Positions 6,342-21,680 of a stretch of DNA of 32,000 nucleotides are shown here, piece after piece. Origin of the DNA: Candidatus Saccharimonadota bacterium. GTDB lineage: Bacteria > Patescibacteriota > Saccharimonadia > Saccharimonadales > Saccharimonadaceae. Position numbers and translations under genes: made by a program. The notes under the pieces were generated by a model. The model saw only the letters and a list, made by a program, of their open reading frames with translations. It ran no database searches and was not told the DNA's origin. The stretch lies in contig NZ_CP045921.1 of assembly GCF_025273655.1 (NCBI RefSeq), forward strand, positions 30,001 through 62,000, written 5' to 3'. Numbering within the stretch: position 1 is the first letter of the stretch; every line of letters begins with the position of its first letter.

Positions 6342-6737
6342 ATGAACGAGTCGATTTTCACCAAAATTATCAACGGAGACATTCCGAGCTACAAGATATA
6401 CGAAGACGAGCATACGTATGCGTTTCTCGATATCCACCCTATCGCATCTGGGCATACGCTGGTGGTGCCCAAGCAGCAAGTAGAGTTTGTTTGGGATCTC
6501 GATACTGCCGCCTATCAGGCTTTGCAGGCGAGCGTGCAGAAGATTGCTAGACATCTTCGTACTACACTTAATGTACCGTACGTGGGCGAGCAAATCATTG
6601 GCGTAGATGTACCGCATGCACATATCCATCTAATTCCGTTTACGGATGTATCACAGTATCGTCACATGCCAGATATGACTGCCGAGCCAGACCATGTGGC
6701 ATTGTCAGAAATTGCCGCGCAGCTTCGCTTCTCATAG
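6342..6737 (+). CDS. HIT (histidine triad) family nucleotide hydrolase/transferase
   Basis: HIT motif HAHIHLIP. N-terminal IFTKIINGDIPSYKIYEDEHTYAFLDIHP and GHTLVVPK. Confidence 0.85.
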   Translation: MNESIFTKIINGDIPSYKIYEDEHTYAFLDIHPIASGHTLVVPKQQVEFVWDLDTAAYQALQASVQKIARHLRTTLNVPYVGEQIIGVDVPHAHIHLIPFTDVSQYRHMPDMTAEPDHVALSEIAAQLRFS

Positions 6738-6747
6738 TTTACAAAAC

Positions 6748-6783
6748 CATAAGATTAGGCAATTATATACTTGACATTACCAA
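6748..6783 (+). repeat. Orphan copy of the IS1595-element terminal repeat (inverted relative to 21150-21185)
   Basis: 33/36 nt identical to the reverse complement of 21150-21185 (mismatches at 6753, 6754, 6776). No transposase is adjacent. Confidence 0.75.
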
Positions 6784-6819
6784 ATTATACAGAGGTGAGA
6801 TTCTCTAAAAAGAAATTAT

Positions 6820-7047
6820 CTAATGATTTTCTAAATCCTCAATCTCCTTACGCTGGTCTTTGACCCACTTTGCTACTTCATCGTTGGTCATAGGTGGTGT
6901 TTTGGCCATTGTCTTCACTGCATCATCAAAAGTGCCGCCAATCCGTACACGTCGCTCGTGCTCGGCTACCGGCTTTTCTTGGTCGTGTTTAATTTGAGCT
7001 TCGAGAGCTTTGATTTCTTCTTCGTTTGGCTTATCATCTGTTGCCAT
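6820..7047 (-). CDS. Hypothetical small charged protein (75 aa)
   Basis: The ATG at 7047 is preceded by TATAAT (7054-7059) with a 6-nt gap, a leaderless arrangement. The ORF-track start at 7092 is a TTG upstream of that -10. Confidence 0.45.
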   Translation of the reverse strand: MATDDKPNEEEIKALEAQIKHDQEKPVAEHERRVRIGGTFDDAVKTMAKTPPMTNDEVAKWVKDQRKEIEDLENH

Positions 7048-7185
7048 ATCTTGATTATAGCAAAAAGTAGTGTGGCTGGTTTTAGTCGCCAAGAACTTTG
7101 GTTGCTTTTCGCTTTTTTATCTTGCGTTTGAGTAGAATTGTTGATTCATGGTGATTTTAATTCCCGCCTTTTTTGGCATAGCGTG

Positions 7186-7767
7186 CTAGTCTTTCGTATC
7201 GCCAGAGCCGCTACCTTTTTGTGCTTGAGCAGTTGCTGGCTTCAGACCGGTCGCGCTGACTTCGATTGAAAAGTCTACCGCGTTTTGTGAGGTATGGTAA
7301 ATACTGTACTTGTTGTCTGGGTAGTGACCAGTACCCGTGCCGTTATCAAAGAAGACGGTCATACTCTTGCCAGGTTCGATTGTCACGCCATCAAGTTTTT
7401 GGTAGTAGCTTTCACTTTGTTTCGTCTTGGCGTCGGTCATGGTGTAGTAGGCTTCAAGGTTTTGCGCTGGCTGGCTGCTGCTATTTTGAATCGTAAACTG
7501 GATGCGATCATTAACTGCCGCGCCTGTCGCTGGGTCGGTATTGTTTTCAACCTGCGCATTAGTAATGGTCAAACCGGCCTGTGTTGAGGTGTTTTTAATC
7601 GGATTATCTTTTACCGGCAAAACTGTCGGTGTTTGATTCTGAGATGTTGTGTTCGTGGTGTTTGTTTGCGACGGATTACTACCACTATTCGTGTAGTAGA
7701 GGTACGCTGCGCCTCCGCCTACGACGATAACCGCCCCGATAATGATGCCTATAGTGTTCTTTTTCAT
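7186..7767 (-). CDS. Membrane-anchored extracytoplasmic protein (N-terminal TM, S/T/N/Q-rich linker, beta-rich domain), last gene of the ABC operon
   Basis: 193 aa. MKKNTIGIIIGAVIVVGGGAAYLYY anchor. 4-nt overlap (7764-7767) with the upstream permease gene. Confidence 0.6.
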   Translation of the reverse strand: MKKNTIGIIIGAVIVVGGGAAYLYYTNSGSNPSQTNTTNTTSQNQTPTVLPVKDNPIKNTSTQAGLTITNAQVENNTDPATGAAVNDRIQFTIQNSSSQPAQNLEAYYTMTDAKTKQSESYYQKLDGVTIEPGKSMTVFFDNGTGTGHYPDNKYSIYHTSQNAVDFSIEVSATGLKPATAQAQKGSGSGDTKD

Positions 7768-8747
7768 ATTGACTCCTTTCTAAGTAGTCGTTTCTTATTA
7801 CATTGCCAGATCGCCCAGAGCGTGCCGCCAAGCGCCCATGCACACACCGTCACGATATTGCCCCACAGGTGCGCGAAGACATACCCGAGCGATTGCTGAT
7901 TATAGATTGGTTTGATGCCGGTAAACCCGAACGTTGACCGCTCAAAATGCTTTTCGACAGAGGCACTTTCGACATAGTTGCGCCCGTTCTCATAGCCGCT
8001 AAAATGTGCCATGATGTCGTGCTGCTGCGGTCGAGCGATTTGCAAACTGTTGAATAAACCGCCTGGCACTTGGTTATCCGGATCCATCGTGTCGCCAATT
8101 TGCGGCAAAACTAGCACGACGACCAACCACAACATCAACCCGACGATCAGGGCGGTCGATGGTTGCTTTGCCCATGCTGCCAACCCCAGCCCTACCGCGC
8201 TCCAAAAGAACAAGTAGACAGCTGCGAGTGCGGCAGTTTCAATGATGCGAACATAATCAATCCCTGAGATATGCGCACCGCCAATCAACAGCAAGATAGC
8301 CACCATGCCAAACCCGATACAACAACTAAAGACTGCCCACGTAATCGCCAATGCGGTCAGCTTACCGATCGCAATATCTTTACTGCGTAGCGGACGGCTC
8401 AAGAGGAGCAAAAGTGTACCCCTCGATTTTTCCTTGGTGATAATCCCATAACCGATCACGATAGCCAGCAGCGCACCGATAATCTCAAGGTATTCGATGC
8501 CGCCGATCAACTGTTGTAGCGGGTAAAACTCTGGCGCATTGGCGGGCGTCGCGGTGCTACCGGCCTGTTTGAGCGCGTCAAGATAGTGCTGGTAATCTGC
8601 CACCTGCGCATGAAACGCAACTGCCGACACGACAATCGAGGCTAAGATCAGGGCGCACAACCCAGCCAGCAGCGCCACAAATAGCCCGCTGCGGCGCATA
8701 TCACGCAAGTCCTTTTTGCCGATAACCCACCATGCCATACTACTCAT
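7764..8747 (-). CDS. ABC-2 type transporter permease
   Basis: 327 aa. Multiple TM helices with a large first extracytoplasmic loop. Overlaps the upstream permease by 8 nt. Confidence 0.7.
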   Translation of the reverse strand: MSSMAWWVIGKKDLRDMRRSGLFVALLAGLCALILASIVVSAVAFHAQVADYQHYLDALKQAGSTATPANAPEFYPLQQLIGGIEYLEIIGALLAIVIGYGIITKEKSRGTLLLLLSRPLRSKDIAIGKLTALAITWAVFSCCIGFGMVAILLLIGGAHISGIDYVRIIETAALAAVYLFFWSAVGLGLAAWAKQPSTALIVGLMLWLVVVLVLPQIGDTMDPDNQVPGGLFNSLQIARPQQHDIMAHFSGYENGRNYVESASVEKHFERSTFGFTGIKPIYNQQSLGYVFAHLWGNIVTVCAWALGGTLWAIWQCNKKRLLRKESI

Positions 8748-9636
8748 AGAGTTCTCCCTTGCGCATCAGTTGCGGCGCACAGACAAGCAACGGTACGACT
8801 GTCACGCCAACGATCAACGCAAACTCAAGCATTTGTCTTGTAGTGTCGTGATCGTCGGTAAAATGGAGTGATGCCGCGCTCAATTCTTTGTAGTGATCGG
8901 TAAACGAAAACGGTTGAAGCACTTGGTGGTTTATTTGAAAGAAAGCACCCTCAGAGGCGGGTTGTGCCGGTACAGGGTTGAGAAACGAGATCGGTTCTTC
9001 GGCAGTGCCAAACTGCGGCACAACAAAGGTCACAAGCGCCCACACCAGAATTGGCACGAGCAGCGCCGTCGTCTCGCCCTTGGCACGCATACCGCTCATC
9101 ATGCCAAGTGCCATAAACGGCAACAGAAACAGCCAGCTCAAGGCAAAAAATGCCAGAAGTCGTCCGGTATTCCCGAGAGAGGTAGCGTGACCTTGGACAA
9201 TCCATAGACTAAGCCATGTCAGTACCGCAGCAATAACCGTAATTACCCCCAACCAGATCGCCATGCCAATAAAGCGAGCCGCGACATATTGCCGTTTACT
9301 TACTGGCCGACTAAATACCAAGTCAAGCACGCGTGATTTTCGGTCACGCACACTGGAACGTACCCCGATCAGTACCGCGAACAACGCCCCGATCAGCGCC
9401 ATATAGATAACGACATTTTTTACCGGGTCGAGCTGCGGGATTTGGAGAAACGGATTTGGCTGGGTCGTCGCGCCTTGGCGCAAGGCTTCATTGTAAACAC
9501 TCGTAACCGTTTCATGCGTCAGCCAGCCGATAAAACTAGCGGCTGCGACCATGAACAGAAATACGATCAAGATAAGTTGCGGTAGCCGCTCCCGCCTGGC
9601 TGCTTTTATCTCGTGTCGTATCGTCGCCGCGAACAT
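8740..9636 (-). CDS. ABC-2 type transporter permease
   Basis: 298 aa polytopic membrane protein. Starts 2 nt after the ATPase stop. Confidence 0.7.
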   Translation of the reverse strand: MFAATIRHEIKAARRERLPQLILIVFLFMVAAASFIGWLTHETVTSVYNEALRQGATTQPNPFLQIPQLDPVKNVVIYMALIGALFAVLIGVRSSVRDRKSRVLDLVFSRPVSKRQYVAARFIGMAIWLGVITVIAAVLTWLSLWIVQGHATSLGNTGRLLAFFALSWLFLLPFMALGMMSGMRAKGETTALLVPILVWALVTFVVPQFGTAEEPISFLNPVPAQPASEGAFFQINHQVLQPFSFTDHYKELSAASLHFTDDHDTTRQMLEFALIVGVTVVPLLVCAPQLMRKGELYE

Positions 9637-9638
9637 CG

Positions 9639-10376
9639 TTACCGCTCCGTCGTCGTGTCGATTTGTAGGTAGATATCTTCAAGCGACCCGTTGCCTGCAA
9701 ATCGTTTGAGCGTATCAGCCAGCGAGTTCTGGTAAATCAGCACACCCGATCTCAAAATACCGATACTCGTACAGGTCTGCGTCACCTCTGATAGTAAGTG
9801 CGTATTCATAAAAATGGTGATGCCAAGCTCCTTATTGAGCTTCAAAATAAGATCACGCAAGCTTTTGACACCTTGCGGGTCGAGGCCGGATGTCGGCTCG
9901 TCGAGGAATAATAACTTTGGCTTATGCAAGATCGCCTGTGCGATACCGACGCGCTGGCGCATACCCTTACTGAATGTTGCCAGTCGTTCGTTATCGTGTC
10001 CGGTGAAATCAAGCAGTTCAAGTACCTCAGCGATGCGTTTACGCGGGTTTTTCAAGCCCGATAACTTGCCGAAATACTCAAGATTTTCATAGAGCGTCAT
10101 ATTGTCGTAAAACTGGACGTTCTCGGGCAAGTAGCCGATTGACTGCTGGACAGCGCGTGATTGCTTTACGATGTCATGCCCAAGCACCGACGCCGTGCCG
10201 CTGGTCGGTGTCAGTAATGTCGTGAGGAGACTCACGGTGGTTGTTTTACCCGCACCATTATGTCCGAGCAAGCCGAATATCTCGCCAGTCTTTACGGTGA
10301 GGTTGAGACTTTTGACGGCAGGCTTAGCCCCGTATACAAGGCTGAGATCGTGGGTTTCGATGGCAATAGCTTTCAT
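9639..10376 (-). CDS. ABC transporter ATP-binding protein
   Basis: Walker A GHNGAGKTT, signature FSKGMRQRV, Walker B LLFLDEPTSGLD, H-loop NTHLL. Confidence 0.9.
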   Translation of the reverse strand: MKAIAIETHDLSLVYGAKPAVKSLNLTVKTGEIFGLLGHNGAGKTTTVSLLTTLLTPTSGTASVLGHDIVKQSRAVQQSIGYLPENVQFYDNMTLYENLEYFGKLSGLKNPRKRIAEVLELLDFTGHDNERLATFSKGMRQRVGIAQAILHKPKLLFLDEPTSGLDPQGVKSLRDLILKLNKELGITIFMNTHLLSEVTQTCTSIGILRSGVLIYQNSLADTLKRFAGNGSLEDIYLQIDTTTER

Positions 10377-10423
10377 CTACTGCCGAGTATAGCCATCTAT
10401 ATATGAGACCAGCGTGAGAAATG

Positions 10424-11221
10424 CTAGTGCGATTTACTTGCTATGCGTCGCTGGCTATCTCCGTGCGACACCGCCAAATAGCCGACCGCGATGACAAGCA
10501 GGGTCGTCAGTACCAATGTCACTAGACTATCACCGTAGCCCATACCGCCGATGCTATGCGGCTTGCCGAGCCAGTCAGCCACCGATGCGCCAAGTGGCCG
10601 TGTTAGCACATAGGCGCACCAAAATGTGAGGATAGCATTGGCATTAAATAGCCAGTATGCAACTGCCGGAATAGCGATCAGTACGCCAAACAGGAGGATA
10701 GAATCGAAGTACCCAAGGTTGAGCGTCATCGCCGTCATATCACCGGCAGCCGTACCGAGCGCAAAGGTTGCCATGATCGTCAGCCAGTAGAACGCTTCAC
10801 GTCGTGGCGTGTGAATACTATGGATTGATAGTGTTCCCTCAACTTTGTACCACAGCCCGAACATCACCAGCATACTCACCGCAAAAAAGATCGTCGAAAC
10901 AACGTACGGAACACCGAACTGAATATGTAGCACGTCAGCCGCCATCGTGCCAAACACCGCTACCATAGCGACAGCAAACCAATAGGTCGCCGGTCTATAC
11001 TCTTTCGCCCTGAACTGAAGCGTCAGCGCTACCAGTAGCAACAAAAAGCCACCAATCACGGCAATATACGGATTGATAACCACCACTGAATAATCTGCGG
11101 CAGCCTCGCCAAGCGCAGTTGTGAGCAGTTTGACTACCCAAAAGATCGCCGCGATCTGCGGTACTTTTGTGACAGTTTGCCAGGCAACGCGATGAGCGGT
11201 ACGGTGATGCTCTACAGCCAT
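10424..11221 (-). CDS. Polytopic membrane protein, DUF347/COG4705-like repeat family
   Basis: Repeated motif of the type VPxIxxxFWxxKxLTTxxGExxxD (KVPQIAAIFWVVKLLTTALGEAAADY). The ATG at 11221 lies 9 nt after TACAAT (11231-11236). Confidence 0.55.
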   Translation of the reverse strand: MAVEHHRTAHRVAWQTVTKVPQIAAIFWVVKLLTTALGEAAADYSVVVINPYIAVIGGFLLLLVALTLQFRAKEYRPATYWFAVAMVAVFGTMAADVLHIQFGVPYVVSTIFFAVSMLVMFGLWYKVEGTLSIHSIHTPRREAFYWLTIMATFALGTAAGDMTAMTLNLGYFDSILLFGVLIAIPAVAYWLFNANAILTFWCAYVLTRPLGASVADWLGKPHSIGGMGYGDSLVTLVLTTLLVIAVGYLAVSHGDSQRRIASKSH

Positions 11222-11272
11222 ATACATTTCATTGTAGCAGCGTGAATATGATAACATGATGAGGTACCTGCG

Positions 11273-11773
11273 CTATAAGACATGAACTTCTCCTCCATTG
11301 TGTCGTCGAGACAGATTTTTGGCTACTATGATAGTGAGAGATACGGCTATCGTTGCAGCAATCAGCCCGACGGCAATACCACCAAGAATGTCAGACCAGT
11401 GATGGACATGAGCAAATACGCGGGCAGCACCGATCAGAATAGCTACTGGAATCATCACTAGCCCCCACTTACGAGCATAGAAAAAGCTGATGAACGCCAG
11501 CGTCGTACCAAACGTCGTATGATCTGATGGAAAGCCGTTGTCCGGTGCGTGCGAAAACAGCGGCACAAGATGCTCACTCACAAATGGGCGTGGGTCGGTA
11601 ATTACTAGCCCCGCAAGCTTGGCGAGGATAAACGCGCAGATGCCACCGATCGCTAGTGATATGAAATACTTTTTGCGCTCACCGCTTGGCAAGCGAAAAA
11701 AGATGATCGCAGCGAGGAGTGGCAGCACAAAAAAGAGATACTGCGCTACAAAAACGATCAGCCCATCAATCAT
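11273..11773 (-). CDS. PAP2 superfamily phosphatase (BcrC/undecaprenyl-diphosphatase-like)
   Basis: PAP2 motifs ITDPRPF (KxxxxxxRP-like), FPSDHTT (PSGH) and ARVFAHVHHWSDILGG (SRxxxxxHxxxD). Confidence 0.8.
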   Translation of the reverse strand: MIDGLIVFVAQYLFFVLPLLAAIIFFRLPSGERKKYFISLAIGGICAFILAKLAGLVITDPRPFVSEHLVPLFSHAPDNGFPSDHTTFGTTLAFISFFYARKWGLVMIPVAILIGAARVFAHVHHWSDILGGIAVGLIAATIAVSLTIIVAKNLSRRHNGGEVHVL

Positions 11774-12386
11774 TAGTCACCTCCGTTGTCTTTGCGTGTT
11801 TGCGTTTTTGCAAATGGACGACGGCTGGAATAAAGGACACGACCATAACGACAATCACAACTGGCAAAATATAGTGATCCATATTCGGAATGATACGGCC
11901 AAGCGTATAGCCAAGCAGTGTCACCACCAAGCCCCACAGCGTACCGCCAAGCACGTTATAGGTCAGGAACTTTTTGTATGACAGTTTGCTCACACCAGCG
12001 ATTGTCGGTATGAACGTACGCACGATCGGCACAAACCGCGCAAAGATAATCGACTGCGCACCGTACTTTTCAAAGAACGCATGGGCTTCGTGCAGGTTCT
12101 TTTGCGAGAAAAAGCGTGAGTCCGGTCGCGTAAACAGTTTCGGTCCAACTTTTGAGCCGATAAAATAGCCGACGCTATCACCAACGATTGCCGCGACAAC
12201 AACGATCACTAGCGTCAGAAAGATATTGAGATGTCCTTGCGACGCAAGTATGCCAGCAGTAATCAGTAGTGTATCACCCGGCAAGAAAAAACCAGCTAGT
12301 AACCCCGATTCGGCAAACACAATCACGGCAAGCCCAACATAGCCAAATGTCAGCCAGTACACCGGGTCGAGTAAATTATGCAGCAC
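11766..12386 (-). CDS. DedA family membrane protein
   Basis: DedA signatures FAESGLLAGFFLPGDTLL and FARFVPIVRTFIPTIAGVSKLSYKKFLTYNVLGGTLWG. 8-nt overlap with the PAP2 gene. Confidence 0.85.
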   Translation of the reverse strand: MLHNLLDPVYWLTFGYVGLAVIVFAESGLLAGFFLPGDTLLITAGILASQGHLNIFLTLVIVVVAAIVGDSVGYFIGSKVGPKLFTRPDSRFFSQKNLHEAHAFFEKYGAQSIIFARFVPIVRTFIPTIAGVSKLSYKKFLTYNVLGGTLWGLVVTLLGYTLGRIIPNMDHYILPVVIVVMVVSFIPAVVHLQKRKHAKTTEVTND

Positions 12387-12478
12387 AGCAAATACTCCGT
12401 TTTCTTGATAGCAGACTGTTCATGTGGTTAGTATGCCTGATGCTAGATGGGATGAACGTGAGAATGTGACATAAAAAA

Positions 12479-12507
12479 TATGGCTTGCCGCTCCTTGCCA
12501 AGCCATA
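12479..12507 (-). terminator. Terminator-like hairpin (repeat copy R1) oriented leftward, upstream of dedA
   Basis: TATGGCTTG...CAAGCCATA, a 9-bp stem. On the minus strand it is followed by T6 and then CTCACGTTC. Confidence 0.5.
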
Positions 12508-12604
12508 CTCGCATGTTTATTTGACCCTCCTTTCTAGGAGTATACGAATGTATACACTCTCTAGTATGAACCTCCAAATGTGATACGAACGTGAGAGCAA
12601 AATA

Positions 12605-12634
12605 ATACGGCTTGGTCTCGCAGGCCAAGCCGTA
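12605..12634 (-). terminator. Terminator-like hairpin (repeat copy R2) oriented leftward
   Basis: ATACGGCTTGG-tctcgcag-CCAAGCCGTAT, an 11-bp stem. On the minus strand it is followed by ATTATTTTG and then CTCTCACGTTC. Confidence 0.5.
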
Positions 12635-12660
12635 TCTGTATACAGCACTATAACTATAGT

Positions 12661-12840
12661 TTTGTTAGTCGTTTGTTTCGGCGTCTTTTTGACCGCCTTG
12701 CCATTCTGTCTATTTTGACCATTTCGGGTGCAGTGGGAGCTGTCATTTGCGGTGGTCATAAGATCATAGCTGCTCTACGGGTATTTTTTGGTGGTACGAC
12801 AGCTATGGTAATTACTTACTTTATTGGCGCAAATGTCTAG
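12661..12840 (+). pseudogene. Possible remnant of the C-terminus of a VIT1/CCC1-family membrane protein
   Basis: The frame ending at TAG 12838-12840 reads ...LSILTISGAVGAVICGGHKIIAALRVFFGGTTAMVITYFIGANV. This resembles the last TM helices of VIT-family proteins. There is no ATG or RBS, and stops lie upstream at 12562 and 12592. Confidence 0.3.
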
Positions 12841-12884
12841 CTGATTGTAAGCAAACTGCAAGCCAGTTAGTATACAATAGTACT

Positions 12885-13568
12885 ATGCGCCTACTTGTCG
12901 TTGAAGATGAAGCCCGTATTGCTGAAGCTATAAAACGCGCCCTTGAACTGCATCACTATGCAGTCGATATTGTGCATGATGCAGATAGTGGTCTTACTGC
13001 TGCAGCCCATCCAGACTATGATATGGTCATTCTTGATCGCATGTTGCCTGGGAATAACGACGGTATTGGCATAGCCCAGGAATTACGTAACCAAGGTGTC
13101 GATACGCCGATCATTATGTTGACTGCACTAGGTGAAGTTGATGATCGGGTAGTCGGCTTGCAAGCCGGTGCTGATGACTATCTGCAGAAGCCGTTTGCCA
13201 TGAAAGAACTGATTGCTCGCGTACAAACACTGTTTCGTCGACCTCGCTACACACTTGGCACGACACTGAAAATCGATGACCTGCAATATGACCCTGTGAC
13301 ATTTCAAGCTACACGCAGCGGTAAGCAGCTGTCGCTCTCGAACAAGGAAATAAAATTGCTGGAGTATATGCTTTACAATCAGGGTCAAGTGATAAGCAAA
13401 GACAAGATTATCACTCATGTCTGGGACGAAGATGCGCTGATCGTGCCTAATACTGTCGAGGTATACATGGGCTATCTTCGCAAAAAGATAGACGCTAATT
13501 TCCCCGACAGGCCACCACTTATACATACGGTTCGAGGGTTTGGTTATCAGCTAGGAGTAATCGCCTAA
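12885..13568 (+). CDS. OmpR/PhoB-family response regulator (TCS-1)
   Basis: Receiver domain (MRLLVVEDE, DMVILDRMLPG, LTALGEVDDRV, KPF) plus winged-helix domain (LSNKEIKLLEYM ... VRGFGYQL). TACAAT lies 6 nt upstream of the ATG. Confidence 0.9.
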   Translation: MRLLVVEDEARIAEAIKRALELHHYAVDIVHDADSGLTAAAHPDYDMVILDRMLPGNNDGIGIAQELRNQGVDTPIIMLTALGEVDDRVVGLQAGADDYLQKPFAMKELIARVQTLFRRPRYTLGTTLKIDDLQYDPVTFQATRSGKQLSLSNKEIKLLEYMLYNQGQVISKDKIITHVWDEDALIVPNTVEVYMGYLRKKIDANFPDRPPLIHTVRGFGYQLGVIA

Positions 13569-14561
13569 ATGTTTAAATCGGCAACGGTCAAACTTACCCT
13601 TTGGTATGTGCTATTAGCGGCCACGCTTTGCCTTGCGTACAGTGTTGTCGTGTATCATCTTTCAACTGAAGAACTCGATGAGGCACTTAACCGGCAATAC
13701 AGCAGCCTCATATCAACCGATGATCATGACAACGATAATGTGCCGCCACCGTATGCTGCGATACAAGAACACAGCAAGCATCTGCTCGGTGAATTAGTCT
13801 GGTTCAATATCACTGTTATTGCTGGTTCATCCGTTTTCGGTTACTTTTTAGCTCGACGAACACTGCGGCCAATTGAACAGGCGCATACGGCACAAATTCG
13901 TTTTACCGCCGAGGCCAGCCATGAACTTCGCACACCACTAGCTGCGATACGCGCCGATACTGAAGTTGCGCTCATGGAGAAAGGCTTAACCGCTAAAGCA
14001 AGGCGTACATTGGAGGGTAACTTGCAAGATATTGGGCGGCTCGAACAACTGACAACAAACCTACTGGATATCGCTCGCTACCATAACGGCTCGGCACCAA
14101 AACTTGGCGTGCTTGATTTCGATGAGCTAACACGCCAAGCCATTAAGCAACTCACCCATAAAGCAGACGAGAAGCACATCACCCTCAAATCGACGATTAA
14201 GCCGGTTCAGGTCATGGGCGATCAACGTACTCTAGAGCAGCTCGTCATCATCTTTATCGATAATGCCATTAAATACAGTCACGAAAATACCACAGTTACT
14301 GTCTCACTCAAGGCTGATATGGCACATGCCGTACTTACCATTAAAGATAAAGGCGTTGGCATACCGGCCGATGATATTCCACATATCTTTGAGCATTTCT
14401 ATCGCTCGCAAAATACCAGTAGAACAAAGCACGTATCGGGCTACGGGCTTGGCTTGCCACTAGCCCAGGAAATCATCAGGGCGCATGGCGGTCAGGCGGA
14501 AATCGAGAGTCGGGAAAATCACGGCACAACCGTCACCGTAACATTGCCGACTGCACCATAA
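13569..14561 (+). CDS. Sensor histidine kinase (TCS-1), 2 TM, 330 aa
   Basis: H-box FTAEASHELRTPLAAI; N, G1 and G2 boxes (DNAIKYS, KDKGVGI, GYGLGL). The start abuts the RR stop (TAAATG). Confidence 0.9.
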   Translation: MFKSATVKLTLWYVLLAATLCLAYSVVVYHLSTEELDEALNRQYSSLISTDDHDNDNVPPPYAAIQEHSKHLLGELVWFNITVIAGSSVFGYFLARRTLRPIEQAHTAQIRFTAEASHELRTPLAAIRADTEVALMEKGLTAKARRTLEGNLQDIGRLEQLTTNLLDIARYHNGSAPKLGVLDFDELTRQAIKQLTHKADEKHITLKSTIKPVQVMGDQRTLEQLVIIFIDNAIKYSHENTTVTVSLKADMAHAVLTIKDKGVGIPADDIPHIFEHFYRSQNTSRTKHVSGYGLGLPLAQEIIRAHGGQAEIESRENHGTTVTVTLPTAP

Positions 14562-14607
14562 GCGGCCAGTAAGCAAACCTACAGGCTTAATTCGTATAGT
14601 TGTAGGT

Positions 14608-15162
14608 ATGAAGAAAGCATCTATTGGACTGGCTGTACTTGTAACACTTGTTGGTTATAGCCTATTCGTCCGTCACGAACAACCAAAGATTAGCGCACCC
14701 TCATCATTAACAGCGGATACCTCGAATAATAACAAGTCGAATACCACCAGCACGCCTCCTAGTGAGGAGAGTACAAGTAGCGGTAGTGGTGGCGATGATA
14801 CTACCTCAAGCGGCAACTCGCCATCATCTTCATCGTCAAGTAGCAGCCAAGGTTCAAGCCAGTCCAGCACGAGTACAGGAGCGTACAAGGACGGCTCATA
14901 CACAGGTAGCACCGAAGATGCTTACTACGGCAACGTACAAGTAAAAGCTACGATTTCAGGTGGCAAGCTTACCAGTGTCGCGTTCTTAGATTACCCTCAC
15001 ACACACTCAACATCGGTCTACATTAACCAACAGGCTATGCCATACCTCCAGCAAGAGGCTATTAAAGCGCAGAGTGCAAACGTCAATATCATAAGTGGTG
15101 CAACGTACACCAGTCAGGCATTCATACAGTCACTCAGCAATGCACTGTCTCAGGCATCGTAA
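14608..15162 (+). CDS. Membrane-anchored extracytoplasmic FMN-binding domain protein (ApbE substrate-type)
   Basis: N-terminal TM anchor, Ser/Thr-rich linker and FMN_bind-like domain (YKDGSYTGSTEDAYYGNVQVKATISGGKLTSV). Flavinylation-type motif NIISGATYTS with Thr codon at 15103-15105. Confidence 0.8.
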   Translation: MKKASIGLAVLVTLVGYSLFVRHEQPKISAPSSLTADTSNNNKSNTTSTPPSEESTSSGSGGDDTTSSGNSPSSSSSSSSQGSSQSSTSTGAYKDGSYTGSTEDAYYGNVQVKATISGGKLTSVAFLDYPHTHSTSVYINQQAMPYLQQEAIKAQSANVNIISGATYTSQAFIQSLSNALSQAS

Positions 15163-15168
15163 GGCCTC

Positions 15169-15906
15169 ATGAAACAAACAAAAATCATCATGGGCATGCC
15201 AATTACTGTTGAGATTACGGACTCGGAAGATACACAGCTACTTGCTGACACCTTTGCTTTTTTCAATAAGGTAGATCGTCGCTACAGTACCTACAAAGAC
15301 GACAGTGAAATTACTCAGATCAATAACGGTATGCCGCGCAGCGATTGGAGTCCTGAAATGCAGGAAATCATGCAGCTCTGTGAGGAAACAAAGCAAGAAA
15401 CTGACGGCTATTTTGATATCAAACATGACGGCAAACTTGACCCGTCTGGCCTCGTCAAGGGCTGGTCTATTTGGGAAGCAGCCAAGCAGTTAGAAAAGCG
15501 TGGCCTCCGCAACTTTTACATTGAAGCCGGGGGCGATATTCAAGCCCAAGGCGTGAATAGTGAGCATGAGCCATGGACTGTCGGCATTCGCAATCCGTTT
15601 AATACAGATGAGATTATCAAGACACTGCATATGCATAACTGTGGTGTTGCAACATCAGGCACGTACATTCGTGGACAGCATATCTATAATCCACACCAGC
15701 CAGAAGAAGCCCCACACGGCGTGCAGAGCCTCACGGTTGTTGCGGCAAATGTCTACGAAGCCGATCGCTTTGCCACGGCTGCATTTGCAATGGGCATGAA
15801 CGGCATAGCGTTCATCGAGCAGCGCGACGGGCTTGAGGGTTACCTCGTAGATAACAATGGCATGGCCACCTATACGAGCGGCTTCAAGGAGTACGTACAT
15901 GCTTAA
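15169..15906 (+). CDS. apbE: FAD:protein FMN transferase (ApbE family)
   Basis: IMGMPITVEI, FNKVDRRYSTYKDDSEITQIN, DPSGLVKGW, IEAGGDI and VATSGTY, typical of ApbE. Confidence 0.85.
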   Translation: MKQTKIIMGMPITVEITDSEDTQLLADTFAFFNKVDRRYSTYKDDSEITQINNGMPRSDWSPEMQEIMQLCEETKQETDGYFDIKHDGKLDPSGLVKGWSIWEAAKQLEKRGLRNFYIEAGGDIQAQGVNSEHEPWTVGIRNPFNTDEIIKTLHMHNCGVATSGTYIRGQHIYNPHQPEEAPHGVQSLTVVAANVYEADRFATAAFAMGMNGIAFIEQRDGLEGYLVDNNGMATYTSGFKEYVHA

Positions 15907-17425
15907 AAGCATTGATGATTTTCTCAATAAGACGACCATGTATCGTCTGCTTATTTACTACCTAGGTGGACTGCTGGGCATCGCATTTGTCGTCAGTCTA
16001 TTTGGAAATCTCGGATTCAGTCCGGTTGCTCTATTGGTATCCACCGCGATTCTACTAGCCGCCTGTTGGGGCATCAACCGTGTCTTTGCATATGTGTTTC
16101 ATGTACCGATGAACCACGAGTCATCGATCATTACGGCACTCATTTTGGCGCTGCTCATTACGCCAAAACTTGGCCAGTATGACCTCTTGTTCTTACTCGC
16201 TGCCTCTGGCCTTGCTATGGCATCGAAGTACGTCCTGACCATACGTGATGTGCATATCTTCAATCCAGCGGCAATTGCTGTCGTCCTCACCGCGATCGGG
16301 CCACGGCAAGATGCAAGTTGGTGGGTCGGCACGGCTACCATGCTACCATTCGTTTTAGTCGGCGGCTTCTTGGTAGTACGCAAGATCAGGCGCGAAGCAA
16401 TGGTAATTGGTTTTCTGCTATCAACATTTATTGCAACAGCAGTCTTTACCATACTGAGCCACGGTGATGCGCTAACAGCACTCAAACAAGCAGCCCTGAC
16501 TTCGCCAGTGTTCTTCTTAGCGTTCGTGATGCTAACCGAGCCACTAACTTCGCCAGGTACGAAAGACAAACAAACGTGGTTCGGCATATTAGTCGGCCTC
16601 CTCGTACCACCGCAAGTACATATTTTTAGCTTCTATACATCACCAGAAATTGCCTTAGTCATCGGCAACGTATTCGCCTATATCGTGAATCCACGCGTTC
16701 GAGTTTTCCCAGTACTGACGCAAAAACTTAGGATTGCAGCCAATAGTGTCGATTTTGTCTTTAATTCTGACAAGAAACTCTCATATCGGCCGGGGCAATA
16801 CATGGAGTGGACGTTGCCGCATACTGGCATCGATAGCCGTGGTAATCGCCGTTACTTCACACTGGCATCATCACCAACGGAAGCAACACTACGGCTCGGC
16901 ATTAAGTTCTACGAACCAAGTAGCAGCTACAAGAAAGCAATGCTCGATATGACTGACAAGACGCAAATCGTGGCCGCCCAAGTTGCCGGTGATTTTGTCC
17001 TACCGCTTAGCAAAAAACAGAAGCTAGTTTTTATCGCCGGTGGTATTGGGGTCACACCATTCCGTAGCATGGTGAAATACCTGATCGATAAAAATGAACA
17101 ACGCGATGTAAAGGTGCTGTACGCCGCCAATAACTTACAGGACATTGCCTACGGTGATGTCTTTGAGCAAGCAAGACAACAACTGAATATTGCAACGACC
17201 TATGTGCTGGCGAAGCCTGATCAGAGCCAAAATCCAGCACCAAATACACGTGTCGGATATGTGGACGCAGCCGCAATCCAAGCGACCGTACCCGATTATC
17301 GCAGCCGCATATTCTACATTTCAGGCAGTCATCAAATGGTTGTCAGCGTGCAAGGCGCTTTGCTAGGTCTTGGCGTACCCCGTGGCCATATTAAGACGGA
17401 TTACTTCCCTGGATATGATGTATAG
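15899..17425 (+). CDS. Fusion protein: RnfD/NqrB-like polytopic membrane domain plus C-terminal FNR-like FAD/NAD(P)H oxidoreductase domain
   Basis: Membrane-domain motifs HIFNPAAIAVV and FVMLTEPLTSP. Reductase motifs RRYFTLAS (RxYS/T) and LVFIAGGIGVTPFRSM. The ATG at 15899 overlaps the apbE stop (ATGCTTAA). Confidence 0.75.
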   Translation: MLKSIDDFLNKTTMYRLLIYYLGGLLGIAFVVSLFGNLGFSPVALLVSTAILLAACWGINRVFAYVFHVPMNHESSIITALILALLITPKLGQYDLLFLLAASGLAMASKYVLTIRDVHIFNPAAIAVVLTAIGPRQDASWWVGTATMLPFVLVGGFLVVRKIRREAMVIGFLLSTFIATAVFTILSHGDALTALKQAALTSPVFFLAFVMLTEPLTSPGTKDKQTWFGILVGLLVPPQVHIFSFYTSPEIALVIGNVFAYIVNPRVRVFPVLTQKLRIAANSVDFVFNSDKKLSYRPGQYMEWTLPHTGIDSRGNRRYFTLASSPTEATLRLGIKFYEPSSSYKKAMLDMTDKTQIVAAQVAGDFVLPLSKKQKLVFIAGGIGVTPFRSMVKYLIDKNEQRDVKVLYAANNLQDIAYGDVFEQARQQLNIATTYVLAKPDQSQNPAPNTRVGYVDAAAIQATVPDYRSRIFYISGSHQMVVSVQGALLGLGVPRGHIKTDYFPGYDV

Positions 17426-17518
17426 ATATTAGTATAAAAAGCCCTGTATGAAACAAACGTGAGATTAAAATAGGAACTTATCACGCACCTCTCATCTTTC
17501 ATTGAGTACAATAGGAGT

Positions 17519-18190
17519 ATGCAATTATTATTGGTTGAAGATCAGAAACGTCTGGCAGGGCTGCTCAAGCGCTCGCTCATCGAAGATGGCTATGCGGTAG
17601 ATATCGCCTCAGACGGTCAAGAAGCAATCGACAAGTTTGATATCAACAATTACGATCTCATCATTTTAGATATAATGTTGCCAATCAAAGACGGCATAGA
17701 GGTTTGCCAAGAAATACGACGTTCCAATACGGACATTCCAATTCTCATGCTGACCGCACTCGATGGTGTTGATGATCGCATCAAAGGGCTGGATAGCGGT
17801 GCTGACGATTATCTCGTTAAGCCATTTTCAGACGGTGAATTGTCGGCACGGGTGCGGGCGCTCCTCCGACGTAGTGGTAACGGTCGCCCGACTATCCTGA
17901 TTATCGGCGAGCTGGTGTTAAATCCAGCGACAAAGAGCGTGACATACAAAGGCACTCTGTTGCCGCTAACCGCCAAAGAATATACGCTGCTAAGCTACTT
18001 CATGTATCATGCGGGCGAATTGCTTTCAAAGAACGATCTCTTAGAGCATGTCTGGGATATGAATTATGATGGCTTGTCGAACGTGGTAGAAACCTATGTA
18101 CGATATCTCCGTAAACGCCTGCGTGATGTTGATAGTAGCAAGGAACTTATCACAACCGTCCGCAATCTGGGCTACAGGTTAGACGCATGA
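17519..18190 (+). CDS. OmpR/PhoB-family response regulator (TCS-2)
   Basis: MQLLLVEDQ, DLIILDIMLP, LTALDGVDDRI and KPF, plus winged helix (LTAKEYTLLSYF ... VRNLGYRL). TACAAT lies 6 nt upstream of the ATG. Confidence 0.9.
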   Translation: MQLLLVEDQKRLAGLLKRSLIEDGYAVDIASDGQEAIDKFDINNYDLIILDIMLPIKDGIEVCQEIRRSNTDIPILMLTALDGVDDRIKGLDSGADDYLVKPFSDGELSARVRALLRRSGNGRPTILIIGELVLNPATKSVTYKGTLLPLTAKEYTLLSYFMYHAGELLSKNDLLEHVWDMNYDGLSNVVETYVRYLRKRLRDVDSSKELITTVRNLGYRLDA

Positions 18191-19179
18191 ACGGACTCAA
18201 GCAAACCACTCTCCGATTGACCATCCAATACTCGTTGATCTTTTTTGCCTTTGTATGGTTATTCAGTGGTGGTATCTATCTTTGGGTAAATAATTCACTT
18301 GGCGAGGGCTATGTCAATCGCATCAACAATGCGCTTGAGCAGCAGCATAGCACCACAAAACACCCGGTCGAGTTGTCCGATAGTGATGCGGCAGTGGCGG
18401 CAGATATTACGCTCGACAAGCTCCGTGACATACTCATCACGGTCAACACGGTCGCCTTGGTAGTTATCCCACTTGCCGCATACTACATCTCGCGTCGCAC
18501 GCTAAAACCTCTTGTCGAGAGTCAGAAATCGCAGCAACGTTTTGTTGCCAATGCCTCGCACGAACTCCGCACACCGCTGGCGGTGATGCTGGCTGATCTT
18601 GATTGGGCGGCCAAGAAGCCGCGCAGTGCCGACGAATACAAAACCACAATCTACAATACCCGCGAAGAAGTGAAACAAATGACCACGCTCGTCACCAGTC
18701 TTTTGCTACTGGCGCGACTCAATGACACGATGACGATCAAGAAACAAGCCGTGTCACTCAGTGATGCGGTACTAAGCGCCATAAAGTACTACGACCACGC
18801 AGCACAGGCGCGGCACATTTCGTTCAAAACAGCACTTGAAACCGATGAAATAGGAGGTGACACCGAACTTATTGGTATTGTTCTGCGCAACCTTGTCGAT
18901 AATGCAGTGAAGTATGCCAATGAACGCACGACCGTTGAGATTAGCAGCGAAACGGCAGGCAAAAAAGCCCGCGTGACTGTCCGCAATACCGCCGACGAGT
19001 TTGATGCAAGCAAACTCACGCACCTGTTTGATCGGTTCTACCAAAGCGACGAACATCAAGGTGGCGAAGGTTTTGGTCTAGGACTGGCGATTGCCCAGCA
19101 AATCGTTGAAGCACATGGCGGGCAGATTGAAGCACGCACACTTGGCGAGCATACAATCGAGATTAGTTTTGTACTGTAG
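18187..19179 (+). CDS. Sensor histidine kinase (TCS-2), 2 TM, 330 aa
   Basis: H-box FVANASHELRTPLAVM; DNAVKYA; GFGLGLAIAQQIVEAHGG. ATGA overlap with the RR stop. Confidence 0.9.
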   Translation: MNGLKQTTLRLTIQYSLIFFAFVWLFSGGIYLWVNNSLGEGYVNRINNALEQQHSTTKHPVELSDSDAAVAADITLDKLRDILITVNTVALVVIPLAAYYISRRTLKPLVESQKSQQRFVANASHELRTPLAVMLADLDWAAKKPRSADEYKTTIYNTREEVKQMTTLVTSLLLLARLNDTMTIKKQAVSLSDAVLSAIKYYDHAAQARHISFKTALETDEIGGDTELIGIVLRNLVDNAVKYANERTTVEISSETAGKKARVTVRNTADEFDASKLTHLFDRFYQSDEHQGGEGFGLGLAIAQQIVEAHGGQIEARTLGEHTIEISFVL

Positions 19180-19187
19180 GAAGCAAT

Positions 19188-19245
19188 GCTATTTTTCTTT
19201 CAGAAAAATAGCCAACTCCCCAAACGGCAAGCCGTTTACGGAGTT
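19188..19245. terminator. Two adjacent hairpins between convergent genes
   Basis: GCTATTTTTC-tttca-GAAAAATAGC at 19188-19212. AACTCC..AAACGGC-aa-GCCGTTT..GGAGTT at 19214-19245. Confidence 0.6.
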
Positions 19246-19255
19246 AGGTAAATAG

Positions 19256-20071
19256 TCACAGGCTCATACGCCCAGAATCTTCATCGTCATCATCTATCTT
19301 CTGCCATAGTTTAGCTGTGCCAGTGGTTTTATCGAGCTGCTCCCTCGTCACTGTCGCAAATGTTACCTCGTCAGTAATATATTTTTCGTCGAGCGCTCTT
19401 TTGATCTGTCCCATGAGTTTCTTCTGCGTCTTGGCGTCCTGACACACGGCGAGAACAGTTGGTAAAGCATACTCATCGGTTGGCCACTCTCCCTCTTCAG
19501 CGTAAGTGATATAATTACGGGCTTTCCGCACACTCACAAAGAAGGGCGTCGTGTCATCCCAGATATCAAGAAAGTAGCGACGAGGCGCTTCTTGCCTTGT
19601 TTTGGGCTTGAAGCTCAGGAAGAGATCAGGCTTCCAGGTTGGAAAGTAGCTATAGGCTACCATGGAGCTTTTGGTAAATAGACGGAGCTTGTCGCCATAT
19701 AGGGCTTGTAACTGCAACGCTATATCAGCCACGTTCAGACAATGTGCGATAAAGTCCGGCGACACGGTTTTGTTTTTGTAGAGGGCTTTTATAGCCCACT
19801 CGTTCGTACTATCGGGTGGTAATGTCCTAGCTCCTTTGGGTGTCAAAAAGTATTCTGCGGCACGTCCTGCAAGCTTGTATGATGGCTGGTAACGCTTGCT
19901 AATATAGCCTTGTTCTTCCAGTATTTGCAGCTTGTTTTGTATAGCTTTATGGCTCGGTTTACCTAGATGCTTAGCTATTTGTTTACTGGTACTGAATCGA
20001 GATTTATAGAGCCAATTTAATACTGCTAATTGTTCGGAGTTTAAGGGTCTATGGTATTTGGCTACAGTCAT
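19256..20071 (-). CDS. Replication-relaxation-like winged-helix protein (mobile-element associated)
   Basis: N-terminal wHTH LNSEQLAVLNWLYKSRFSTSKQIAKHLG...LQILEEQGYISKRY, followed by FIAHCLNVADIALQL. The resemblance to the Replic_Relax family is judged from memory only. ATG at 20071. Confidence 0.45.
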   Translation of the reverse strand: MTVAKYHRPLNSEQLAVLNWLYKSRFSTSKQIAKHLGKPSHKAIQNKLQILEEQGYISKRYQPSYKLAGRAAEYFLTPKGARTLPPDSTNEWAIKALYKNKTVSPDFIAHCLNVADIALQLQALYGDKLRLFTKSSMVAYSYFPTWKPDLFLSFKPKTRQEAPRRYFLDIWDDTTPFFVSVRKARNYITYAEEGEWPTDEYALPTVLAVCQDAKTQKKLMGQIKRALDEKYITDEVTFATVTREQLDKTTGTAKLWQKIDDDDEDSGRMSL

Positions 20072-20182
20072 ACTAATCGTCAATCACTTTCTTCTTTATA
20101 TTTATATATAAAAAGAGAGGAAAAAGAAAGAGAAAAAACAGATAGAAAAGAGTTTTATAGCTTGGGTATCGGTAACTAATTT

Positions 20183-21127
20183 TTAAGAACGCTTGCGAGT
20201 GAGGTTTTTATACATGAGGCGCTTGCCGTAGATGTTATCAAACCAAGCCTCAAAACGCTCGCCGTCAGTCAGTTCACGTGTGTTCCAGCGGAAACTATAC
20301 TCGTCACAATAAAGCTGCAAATGCTTGGCGCTGACATGGTGGTAAATGCCATTGATACCGCGCTTTAAGTGCGACCAAAAACTCTCTGCGGTGTTCGTAC
20401 TAGCCATACCGTTTACAAACTCTTTGACGCCGTGATTGACGCTTTCGTGCTTGAAACCAAGTTTAGGCAACGTGCGATATGGCATGTGTTCGTCTGTGTA
20501 GATCGTCGCGTCAATGTCGATGTTTTTGCGTGCCAAGTTCATGAGCGTATTGCTGCCAGTATCTTTTGTAGCAATCGCGCGTAGTCTGCCGCCGCGTTCA
20601 ACCATACCAACAACGGGCGCTTTACTATTCTTGCTGCCGTGACCTTGTGCGCCCTTGCCGGTGAGGGTCTTGAGCTTCTTACTATGGTGTTTGTTCTTAT
20701 CAGAGCCGCCTATATACGCCTCATCCATTTCAACCTCGCCAGTGAGCTTTTCAAAGCTGCCTGTTTCAAATACATGTCGTATACGCTGGAGCATAAACCA
20801 CGCGGTCTTTTGGGTAACGCCAATATACCGACTAAGCTGAAGCGACGATATACCTTTTTTGAGGCTTGTACATAGGTAGATAGCCAAGAACCATTTTTGT
20901 AGTGGCACGGGGCTATCTTCAAAGATACTGCCTATACGCACCGTAAACGGACTACGGCAGCTTGCGCATTTTAGACGGCCTGTTTTTAGTTTGTATACTT
21001 TGACGCCTATTTCGCCACATTTTGGGCATGTAACGCCGTTTGACCAGCGCTGCTCAAACAAGAACTTTTGACACTGTTCTTCTGTGGCAAATGAGTTGTA
21101 GAATTGAATGAGGTTGAATGCTTCCAT
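20183..21127 (-). CDS. IS1595-family (ISXO2-like) DDE transposase
   Basis: N-terminal transposase zinc ribbon (CPKCGE...CASCRSPFTVRIGSIFEDSPVPLQKWFLAIYL). DDE-domain region with EMDEAYIGG and YTDEHMPY. Confidence 0.85.
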   Translation of the reverse strand: MEAFNLIQFYNSFATEEQCQKFLFEQRWSNGVTCPKCGEIGVKVYKLKTGRLKCASCRSPFTVRIGSIFEDSPVPLQKWFLAIYLCTSLKKGISSLQLSRYIGVTQKTAWFMLQRIRHVFETGSFEKLTGEVEMDEAYIGGSDKNKHHSKKLKTLTGKGAQGHGSKNSKAPVVGMVERGGRLRAIATKDTGSNTLMNLARKNIDIDATIYTDEHMPYRTLPKLGFKHESVNHGVKEFVNGMASTNTAESFWSHLKRGINGIYHHVSAKHLQLYCDEYSFRWNTRELTDGERFEAWFDNIYGKRLMYKNLTRKRS

Positions 21128-21133
21128 ACCTCT

Positions 21134-21162
21134 ATTGTATCAGGGGTGATTGGTAACGTCAA
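21134..21162 (-). promoter_or_regulatory. Transposase promoter TTGACG-17nt-TACAAT, with the ATG 6 nt after the -10 (leaderless)
   Basis: -35 at 21157-21162, -10 at 21134-21139, ATG at 21125-21127 on the minus strand. Confidence 0.6.
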
Positions 21163-21200
21163 GTATATAATTGCCTAAGATTATGTCACAATAGTACTAC

Positions 21201-21680
21201 ATGCGGGAGAGTCCCCATGTGAGGCACGAGAGGTGTAAGATGGGACACAAAATAAGTGTTGATGCACAGCGCAGTGATATGCAGTTTGAAGCTGCAAATA
21301 CTAGTTGTCGCCGTGCGGTCTTGGGGTTTATTGCTGCAAGACTTGCTCACGCACAAGGTGTGGGTGATTCACCGGATCCAATTCCCGTCACGGTGTATAG
21401 TCGCAACGACGAGCTGTGTGAAGGTTGGTATCTCGTCTGGGTAGGGTTGACCGGTGCGGAGACGGTCTGTGTGTTGGCGCAAGATCTCGACACTGAGACG
21501 GAGGACATCCGTGCGATTTCTGTCACGGTCGATCTTTCGGTCGACGATTATGCCACCACGGATAGCTTTGAAGTAGTCACCACTGGCATGCGGGAAGGCG
21601 ACGATACCCCAACATTCTGGGCGTTCGTACAGAGTACGATCGCTCTGCAGTGGAGTGAGGGCATCTACTTTGCCCACTAG
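21201..21680 (+). CDS. Hypothetical acidic protein (alternative start at 21240)
   Basis: 159-aa ORF with no recognisable family. The ATG at 21201 follows CACAAT by 8 nt. The ATG at 21240 follows GAGAGGTG. Confidence 0.4.
   Translation: MRESPHVRHERCKMGHKISVDAQRSDMQFEAANTSCRRAVLGFIAARLAHAQGVGDSPDPIPVTVYSRNDELCEGWYLVWVGLTGAETVCVLAQDLDTETEDIRAISVTVDLSVDDYATTDSFEVVTTGMREGDDTPTFWAFVQSTIALQWSEGIYFAH

Follow-up and report, generated by a model that had tools for sequence, protein, structure and literature searches.

Three flavin genes lying between two similar two-component systems (TCSs) raise the questions of what the flavin genes do, which of the two systems governs them, and how the arrangement came about. 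The block occupies positions 12885-19179 of a 32,000-nt stretch of contig NZ_CP045921.1 from a Candidatus Saccharimonadota bacterium, the whole of which we call the window; coordinates count from its first base, and L001-L093 denote the contigs and loci compared with it. An earlier note on this DNA had listed seven co-directional open reading frames (ORFs), namely a response regulator (RR1) and sensor kinase (HK1), a membrane-anchored flavin mononucleotide (FMN)-binding protein, the FMN transferase ApbE, a membrane reductase fusion, and a second regulator-kinase pair (RR2-HK2), and the ORF list together with Pfam placed all seven, with their domains and motifs, where that note had put them (Table 1; domain calls scored above the curated Pfam cut-offs, and NCBIfam was concordant). 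Our reading of the sequence evidence, to which we give a probability of about 0.75, is that 12885-17425 encodes a two-component-regulated Nqr/Rnf-like system, and that its genes plus a VIT1 fragment form a 4.7-kb cassette nested in an IS1595-type transposon. What is new here is the dedicated regulator with its candidate operator, the nested mobile context, and a puzzle over the localisation of ApbE.

The class itself has been described before. In the portion of Méheust et al. (2021; PMC8238504) on which we draw, five types of flavinylation-linked transmembrane electron transfer are predicted, one of which, NQR/RNF-like, is defined by PF03116 and PF00175 in one protein near ApbE and FMN_bind genes and counts 127 clusters, for the most part in Actinobacteria and in the candidate phyla radiation (CPR). 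The Pfam architecture of the three flavin genes agrees with this definition, which supports the earlier proposal of a flavinylation-dependent transmembrane electron-transfer module; judged by their domains, the genes match the published class, so the architecture is a known one and the locus is new. Among the profile searches that the note had suggested, FMN_bind, ApbE, NQR2_RnfD_RnfE and NAD_binding_1 all came out over cut-off, while FAD_binding_6 stayed below the Pfam threshold in the fusion. The comparison of neighbourhoods across related genomes, also proposed there, covered 77 non-redundant loci from Saccharibacteria, other Patescibacteria, Chloroflexota and Dormibacterota. About 70 of these keep the order of the FMN_bind-ApbE-fusion triad: in 70 the gene immediately upstream of the fusion encodes ApbE, and in at least 56 the one before it encodes FMN_bind. 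With at least 556 genomic matches and 359 membrane-domain clusters (50% identity, E <= 1e-30), mostly from proteins of 480-510 aa, the Nqr/Rnf-like family seems to exceed the published count of 127 clusters, although it is still modest.

Each of the three flavin proteins carries the features expected of such a system. The FMN_bind protein consists of an N-terminal anchor helix (residues 3-21), a linker rich in serine and threonine, and an FMN_bind domain (PF04205), and its motif NIISGATYTS fits the pattern [D/N]xx[S/T]GA[T/S] near the PF04205 C-terminus; by direct count, the threonine codon that the note had placed at 15103-15105 is residue 166. Of 65 orthologues, 64 have a motif of the SGAT type, placed 17-21 residues before the C-terminus, and in the nearest solved relative of the domain, the FMN-binding domain 8p2a_A, the aligned residues are SGATYTS. 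The anchor has a hydrophobic N-terminus with a KK n-region, the start M(K/R)K is conserved across orthologues, net charge is +1.9 on the N-terminal side of the helix and +0.8 after it, and 62% of the linker is S/T/P/A; the charge bias and linker composition point to an N-in/C-out topology. Among solved structures, E. coli ApbE (4xgw, 3e-18) matches the ApbE of the window best; the GVATSGTY and EADRFAT motifs are retained in a compact protein that has an internal deletion of about 55 aa. The fusion most likely starts at M15 of its ORF (15899), since homologues are about 507 aa long and begin MLKxIDDFLNK; this gives 508 aa and an 8-nt overlap with the apbE stop, which bears out the overlap noted earlier.

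Within the fusion ORF, NQR2_RnfD_RnfE (PF03116) scored 35.4 bits at residues 158-274 (cut-off 27.7) and NAD_binding_1 (PF00175) 54.5 bits at residues 392-499, dividing the protein into an NqrB/RnfD-like membrane part (about residues 1-270) and a cytosolic FNR-like part for flavin adenine dinucleotide (FAD) and NAD(P)H (about 272-508). The C-terminal half contains the FAD motif RRYFTLASSP and the NAD motif GGIGVTPFRSM, whose cores RRYFTLAS and GGIGVTPF are invariant or nearly so and fit the signatures RxY(S/T) and GxGxxP of the ferredoxin-NADP reductase (FNR) superfamily; in the AlphaFold model (pLDDT 82.7) it matches complete FNR-type modules, and Foldseek gave target-normalised TM-scores of 0.72-0.84 against the FAD domains of NqrF, Fre and the reductase module of flavohaemoglobin. 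The membrane domain required more sensitive comparison. A single-sequence PDB search with it gave no match, and a profile of 20 sequences was needed, which retrieved only RnfD (E = 7e-5) and NqrB (E = 0.014) from the whole PDB. As the FNR module dominated the Foldseek matches of the full-length model, with NqrB and RnfD absent among the best 50, the assignment of the membrane domain rests on sequence profiles. The loop that carries the flavinylated threonine in NqrB/RnfD is shortened, and no [ST]G[AS][ST] motif was found in the NqrB-like domain of 45 + 20 sequences; for a homologue modelled by AlphaFold-multimer, the part of Huang et al. (2024; PMC10979944) used here likewise reports that the flavinylated threonine of NqrB is not conserved, and puts FMN at the NqrB-like subunit's outer flavin pocket.

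As to regulation, we propose RR1-HK1 as the module's own regulator, because a pair of this type is co-inherited with the triad in 13 loci along with a conserved operator-like element. These loci are the window, L004, L007, L008, L009, L013-L015, L029, L034 and L091-L093; in L009, two genes separate the pair from the triad. Where measured (L004-L034), RR1 orthologues are 52-82% identical and lie directly upstream of the triad, and in L091-L093 the position of the regulator was taken from Pfam annotation. After the kinase stop codon in all 13 loci there is a 14-nt element (consensus AGCAAATMTACAGY) that ends about 9 nt before a -10-like box. A gap of 6-8 nt parts this box from the start codon of FMN_bind in the window, L004, L007, L034 and L091-L093; in L013-L015 the start codon is further downstream. 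The window's copy at the FMN_bind promoter is the best match to the position weight matrix (PWM) in the window (21.1 bits), and the only other match above 13 bits, within rlmH, was taken as chance. A regular expression for the operator matched 18 times in 1.15 Mb (both strands), with 10 of the matches at 1186-1291 nt before a fusion start, all in TCS-positive loci, and no element was found at the FMN_bind promoter position in about 60 TCS-less loci. Among loci outside the derivation of the pattern, it was exact in L009, L091 and L093 and had one mismatch in L092. At the RR1 promoter of the window, the exact 10-mer GTAAGCAAAC (12847-12856) is one of only two occurrences in the window, and the corresponding sites in L091-L093 score 10-16 bits at the same distance from the TACAAT box.

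RR1 would thus bind the 14-nt element at the -35 position of the FMN_bind promoter and, more weakly, the copy before its own gene, a layout expected for an OmpR/PhoB-type activator box at -35 with autoregulation. Autoregulated operons of the PhoB/OmpR type share with this locus an OmpR-family regulator, a copy at the regulator's own promoter, and an element of the window's kind, with AG...AG at 11-nt phase ending 9 nt before the -10; they differ in that transcripts here appear leaderless. HK1 has two transmembrane helices, an extracytoplasmic loop of about 45 aa and no HAMP domain; its loop contains the cluster DHDxDN (residues 51-57, nt 13719-13739), which is common to HK1 orthologues and absent from HK2, and metal sensing through this cluster is our hypothesis. 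Promoters found by comparison were missed by a generic scan for sigma-70 sites and terminators, which returned no more sites than in shuffled sequence. Hexamers of the -10 type stand 6-7 nt before the starts of RR1 (12873-12884), FMN_bind (14595-14607), RR2 (17507-17518) and the IS1595 transposase (21134-21145). The layout TACAAT-N6-ATG, noticed earlier in front of both regulators, is indeed there, but also precedes the transposase gene; these three of 33 window genes all lie inside the transposon, against a background of 2.8%. Such close -10 spacing implies that the first genes of the element's transcription units probably have leaderless mRNAs. The regulator promoters in other species have the same close -10 layout. 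Apart from this, an exact 12-mer, ACAATAGTACTA, spans the RR1 promoter and start (12874-12885) and recurs at 21188-21199, against about 0.004 such matches expected by chance; the second copy is just beyond the right target duplication and directly before the ATG of an unannotated 159-aa ORF (21201-21680).

Comparison with L087 delimited the cassette. This contig carries the same element at about 96% identity, with 264 bp in place of window positions 12709-17426, and these 264 bp are the 5' part of an intact gene for a 78-aa secreted protein that is truncated in the window. Because two truncated genes meet at one junction, the window arrangement is the derived one and the cassette was inserted. 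The VIT1 remnant aligns with residues 187-227 of the intact VIT1 of L091 (234 aa), at 71% identity over 41 aa, and the cassette is colinear with L091 4811-9522, where at 82% identity the order is Replic_Relax-VIT1-RR-HK-FMN_bind-ApbE-fusion-DedA beside a serine recombinase and type IV secretion system (T4SS) genes. In L092 (80%) we found a serine recombinase, VIT1, the RR-HK pair and the triad, and in L093 (87%) an IS1595 fragment adjoining RR-HK and the triad. By sequence comparison, the cassette came from a VIT1-RR-HK-triad locus, of which L091 and L092 show the donor-like arrangement. Homologous recombination through DedA, which follows the fusion in L091, was considered as the insertion route and rejected, as orientation and position do not match and no repeats were seen by eye at the junctions. 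As for the surroundings of the L091 locus, positions 1-17527 hold a serine recombinase, Replic_Relax, a T4SS pilin, TrbL, a VirB4-like ATPase, a CHAP hydrolase and a coupling protein, and the region looks like a Saccharibacteria integrative/conjugative element (ICE).

The transposon around the cassette refines an inverted-repeat-bounded accessory segment of the earlier note, which proved real, to terminal inverted repeats (IRs) of 26 nt and a target-site duplication (TSD) of 8 bp. In L087, L089 and L090 (left ends) and L001 (right end), the IRs abut other AT-rich 8-mers and other flanking genes, and the 14,418-bp unit is for this reason a cargo transposon inserted independently at several sites; the cassette-less version in L087 is about 10 kb. 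Like other members of the IS1595 family, it has a DDE_Tnp_IS1595 transposase with a Zn-ribbon, terminal IRs and an 8-bp target duplication, and it differs from them in its size (14.4 kb), its approximately 17 passenger genes, its nested 4.7-kb cassette and the lack of a detectable IR by the transposase stop, near which the inverted-repeat search reported no third copy. The breakpoints and the TSD document a cargo transposon with a nested cassette that moves a redox module among Saccharibacteria, and since nested mobile elements carry it among these bacteria, the flavin trait is accessory and horizontally traded.

Table 1. Positions of the genes, candidate promoters and mobile-element features in the window
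Feature	Position	Strand	Basis or remarks
IS1595-type transposon, 14,418 bp	6758-21175		26-nt IRs at 6758-6783 and 21150-21175, one mismatch
Target-site duplication, 8 bp, TAAGATTA, perfect	6750-6757 and 21176-21183		Direct repeat flanking the IRs
Cassette, 4,718 bp (VIT1 3' fragment, RR1, HK1, FMN_bind, ApbE, fusion)	12709-17426	+	Comparison with L087
VIT1 (Fe2+/Mn2+ transporter family), 3' remnant, stop 12838-12840	12709-12840	+	Pfam E = 3.8e-5, profile 172-213 of 214
Candidate RR1 promoter	12850-12878	+	Degenerate element AGCAAACTGCAAGC 12850-12863, 9-nt spacer, TACAAT 12873-12878, 6 nt to ATG
RR1 (OmpR/PhoB-type response regulator)	12885-13568	+	Pfam Response_reg, Trans_reg_C
HK1 (minimal sensor kinase, 330 aa)	13569-14561	+	Pfam HisKA, HATPase_c
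Candidate FMN_bind promoter	14572-14600	+	Element AGCAAACCTACAGG 14572-14585, 9-nt spacer, TATAGT 14595-14600, 7 nt to ATG
FMN_bind protein (NqrC/RnfG-like, 184 aa)	14608-15162	+	Pfam FMN_bind, 39.1 bits
ApbE (FAD:protein FMN transferase, 245 aa)	15169-15906	+	Pfam ApbE (PF02424), 147 bits
Fusion (NqrB/RnfD-like and FNR-like)	Full ORF 15857-17425, likely coding sequence 15899-17425	+	Pfam
RR2 (OmpR-type response regulator)	17519-18190	+	Pfam Response_reg, Trans_reg_C
HK2 (sensor kinase, 330 aa)	18187-19179	+	Pfam HisKA, HATPase_c
Replic_Relax	19256-20083	-	Pfam
DDE transposase (DDE_Tnp_IS1595)	20183-21127	-	PF12762, 157.8 bits, and Zn-ribbon PF12760

From homology and the published AlphaFold-multimer model of a homologue, we infer a route for the electrons. 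In the 508-aa fusion, NAD(P)H would reduce the FAD of the cytosolic FNR-like domain, and a flavin held in the NqrB/RnfD-like domain, which has lost the covalent-flavin loop, would carry the electrons across the membrane. Next would come the FMN on Thr166 of the membrane-anchored NqrC/RnfG-like protein, put there by ApbE, and from it the electrons would pass to an acceptor outside the cytoplasm. We take this route to correspond to the FMN/riboflavin leg of Na+-NQR run outward. The best guess for the acceptor, and only a guess, is Fe(III), on the ground that VIT1 recurs as a neighbour: it is adjacent in the closest relatives L091 and L092, is left as a remnant in the window, and was found in three of the 77 broader loci. 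The locus adds several handles, namely a sensor-regulator pair, a candidate operator of 14 nt present at two promoters, a loop motif that may bind metal and the recurrent VIT1 link, which turn the questions of acceptor and signal in Nqr/Rnf-like systems into specific experiments.

Set beside Na+-NQR and RNF, the module has in common the NqrB/RnfD membrane domain, the ApbE-flavinylated FMN domain of NqrC/RnfG and the NqrF-like FAD/NADH module. It differs in having two subunits only, in a reductase without the 2Fe-2S ferredoxin domain, in an NqrB-like domain without the covalent-FMN loop, and in an electron flow that is presumably one-way outward as opposed to semicircular. The 32-kb window holds no cytochrome, quinone, Fe-S or other Rnf/Nqr genes, so the earlier description of the module as minimal stands, and the idea that it is a fragment of a full NQR/RNF was rejected, as the neighbourhoods of 80 loci never hold the remaining subunits (NqrA, NqrD, NqrE, RnfA, RnfB, RnfC and RnfE being absent from these and from the window). 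The Listeria system (FmnB/PplA/Ndh2/EetAB) is alike in its ApbE-type transferase, surface FMN_bind protein, monoderm-type envelope and NADH as the ultimate donor; Ndh2, demethylmenaquinone and EetAB are missing here, with the NqrB-like/FNR fusion providing the membrane step. The closest match is the NQR/RNF-like type (PMC8238504, PMC10979944), with the same apbE, NqrC/RnfG-like FMN_bind and PF03116/PF00175 fusion, a lost NqrB threonine and an occasional VIT1; in the portions of both papers on which we draw, a dedicated TCS or operator, carriage by a transposon or ICE-like element, and a family-wide ApbE without signal go unmentioned.

Several observations weigh against a two-component-regulated Nqr/Rnf-like system of this kind, beginning with our literature search, which found no experimental study of any member of the class. 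The RR1 promoter site of the window scores below 9 bits and keeps only the 5' half of the element; nine of the loci in which the operator pattern is found had served to derive it, and since TCS-positive loci may be one clade, its association with them is partly phylogenetic. OmpR-type pairs nearer to RR2 (40-55% identity) adjoin the triad in five distant loci (L031, L047, L059, L068 and L081), so that some functional link of RR2-type systems with it is conceivable. No operator-like element was found upstream of VIT1 in L091 or L092. Proteins of the VIT family as a rule carry metal away from the cytosol, and a role for VIT1 fits detoxification as well as assimilation. Finally, ApbE has no signal to match the apparently exported FMN_bind domain: among 76 orthologues, none has a signal peptide, transmembrane helix, lipobox or hydrophobic N-terminus, and the maximal ORF permits at most five extra residues in 62 of the 76, with the longer extensions non-hydrophobic. 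The term extracytoplasmic flavinylation, used in the earlier note, is complicated by this lack of an export signal. Listeria FmnB, in comparison, acts extracytosolically.

The same machine could instead be an electron sink that regenerates NAD(P)+ by passing electrons to flavins, quinones or O2, as might suit a fermentative epibiont with soluble or host-derived acceptors, or an ion-translocating mini-NQR, and not an iron reductase. We regard this as somewhat unlikely, although about 95% of the loci have no VIT1 neighbour, the missing operator upstream of VIT1 speaks for it too, and NqrB/RnfD are core subunits of ion-pumping complexes. An FMN-binding protein of S. azureus is able to use O2 as electron acceptor (ApbE review, PMC12052999). 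Against these purposes stand the absence of the pump subunits NqrD/E, the recurrence of VIT1, alone among transporter and enzyme neighbours, specifically in the closest relatives, its place beside NQR/RNF-like genes in six clusters in the data cited from Méheust et al. (2021; PMC8238504), and the His/Asp cluster in the HK1 loop, which is suggestive of metal sensing. A different alternative turns the flavinylated domain towards the cytosol, making the proteins a membrane-associated NAD(P)H:flavin oxidoreductase, whose acceptor would be in the membrane or the cytosol, and no extracytosolic conduit. The uniform lack of export features in ApbE favours it, and cytosolic ApbEs with cytosolic substrates are known, such as that of Klebsiella pneumoniae, which also has no signal peptide and flavinylates a soluble fumarate reductase (PMC12052999); the substrate in the window differs in having a signal-anchor and appearing exported. 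With the conserved M(K/R)K anchor, its charge bias and its linker all pointing outward, with homology to NqrC/RnfG, whose FMN domains are periplasmic, and with FMN at the outer flavin pocket of the modelled homologue (PMC10979944, in the part used here), we consider a cytosolic domain quite improbable. An ApbE without signal and an exported substrate form a family-wide inconsistency that any model has to resolve. Méheust et al. (2021; PMC8238504), as far as the portion used here describes it, filtered on predicted export signals, which may explain why the CPR was seen as under-represented there. Somewhat bolder, and in our estimate rather unlikely, is a combined proposal in which ApbE is cytosolic throughout the family, with flavinylation occurring before or during export, or with the FMN domain being cytosolic after all and the whole family wrongly classed as extracytosolic, and HK1 is perhaps a metal (iron) sensor through DHDxDN. 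If true, flavinylation before or during export would amount to a new route of biogenesis that suits organisms unable to export FAD, and with metal sensing by HK1 the locus would be a redox cassette of the CPR that is horizontally mobile and responds to metal.

The two regulator-kinase pairs could also be a duplicated pair, as the earlier note had suggested, that brackets and co-regulates the flavin module. They have equal domain architectures, kinases of 330 aa with the H-box SHELRTPLA in both, and TACAAT-N6-ATG before both regulator genes; no terminator was detected between the fusion and RR2, so read-through is possible, and the five distant loci with RR2-like pairs next to the triad are in line with such a role. 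The resemblance is nonetheless generic, as the H-box is the HisKA consensus, 328-331 aa is the usual length for this kinase type and the promoter layout is shared with the transposase gene, whereas RR1 and RR2 are only 45% identical and HK1 and HK2 only 29%, the DHDxDN loop motif is missing in HK2, L087 has RR2-HK2 but not the module, and the RR1-HK1-triad loci of other species all lack RR2-HK2. Identity and genomic context led us to reject a recent TCS duplication, the claim of a duplicated sensor pair is not supported, and co-regulation by both systems seems to us very unlikely. Judged by its context, RR2-HK2 belongs to the transposon backbone and not to the cassette; two TCSs bracket the flavin genes because the 4.7-kb cassette was inserted. 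In L087 the pair sits beside divergent genes for DedA (UptA-like), PAP2 (UPP-phosphatase-like), DUF347 and an ABC-2 exporter, with no flavin cassette, and it most likely serves these DedA-PAP2-DUF347-ABC exporter genes. In the window, the backbone genes at 7186-12386 (minus strand) encode DedA, PAP2, DUF347 and an ABC-2 exporter of the DrrA/lantibiotic-protection type, and with RR2-HK2 they resemble a mobile unit for envelope stress or bacitracin-type resistance that brings a sensor of its own.

Some further features of the window and of the compared loci were noted. Between the convergent HK2 and Replic_Relax genes, a 72-nt non-coding stretch (19183-19254) forms two hairpins in tandem when folded (-31.5 kcal/mol, z = -6.8). 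Its counterpart just downstream of Replic_Relax in L091 is 86% identical, with differences in the inner stem that keep the base pairing; the hairpins are probably a bidirectional terminator, and possibly more. In L007 (about 9500-13500), DUF347 and DedA come right after the fusion and are followed by a second ApbE-fusion pair, and as DedA is near the triad in about six loci, a functional link of DedA or DUF347 to the flavin module is possible. At the left end of the window, small membrane proteins resembling T4SS pilins (PF18895) are encoded at 320-760 and 2413-2838, and between two PF18895 proteins there is a 95-nt direct repeat with 73% identity (43-137/545-639). A perfect 59-nt direct repeat (2961-3019/3081-3139) adjoins tRNA-Ser genes.

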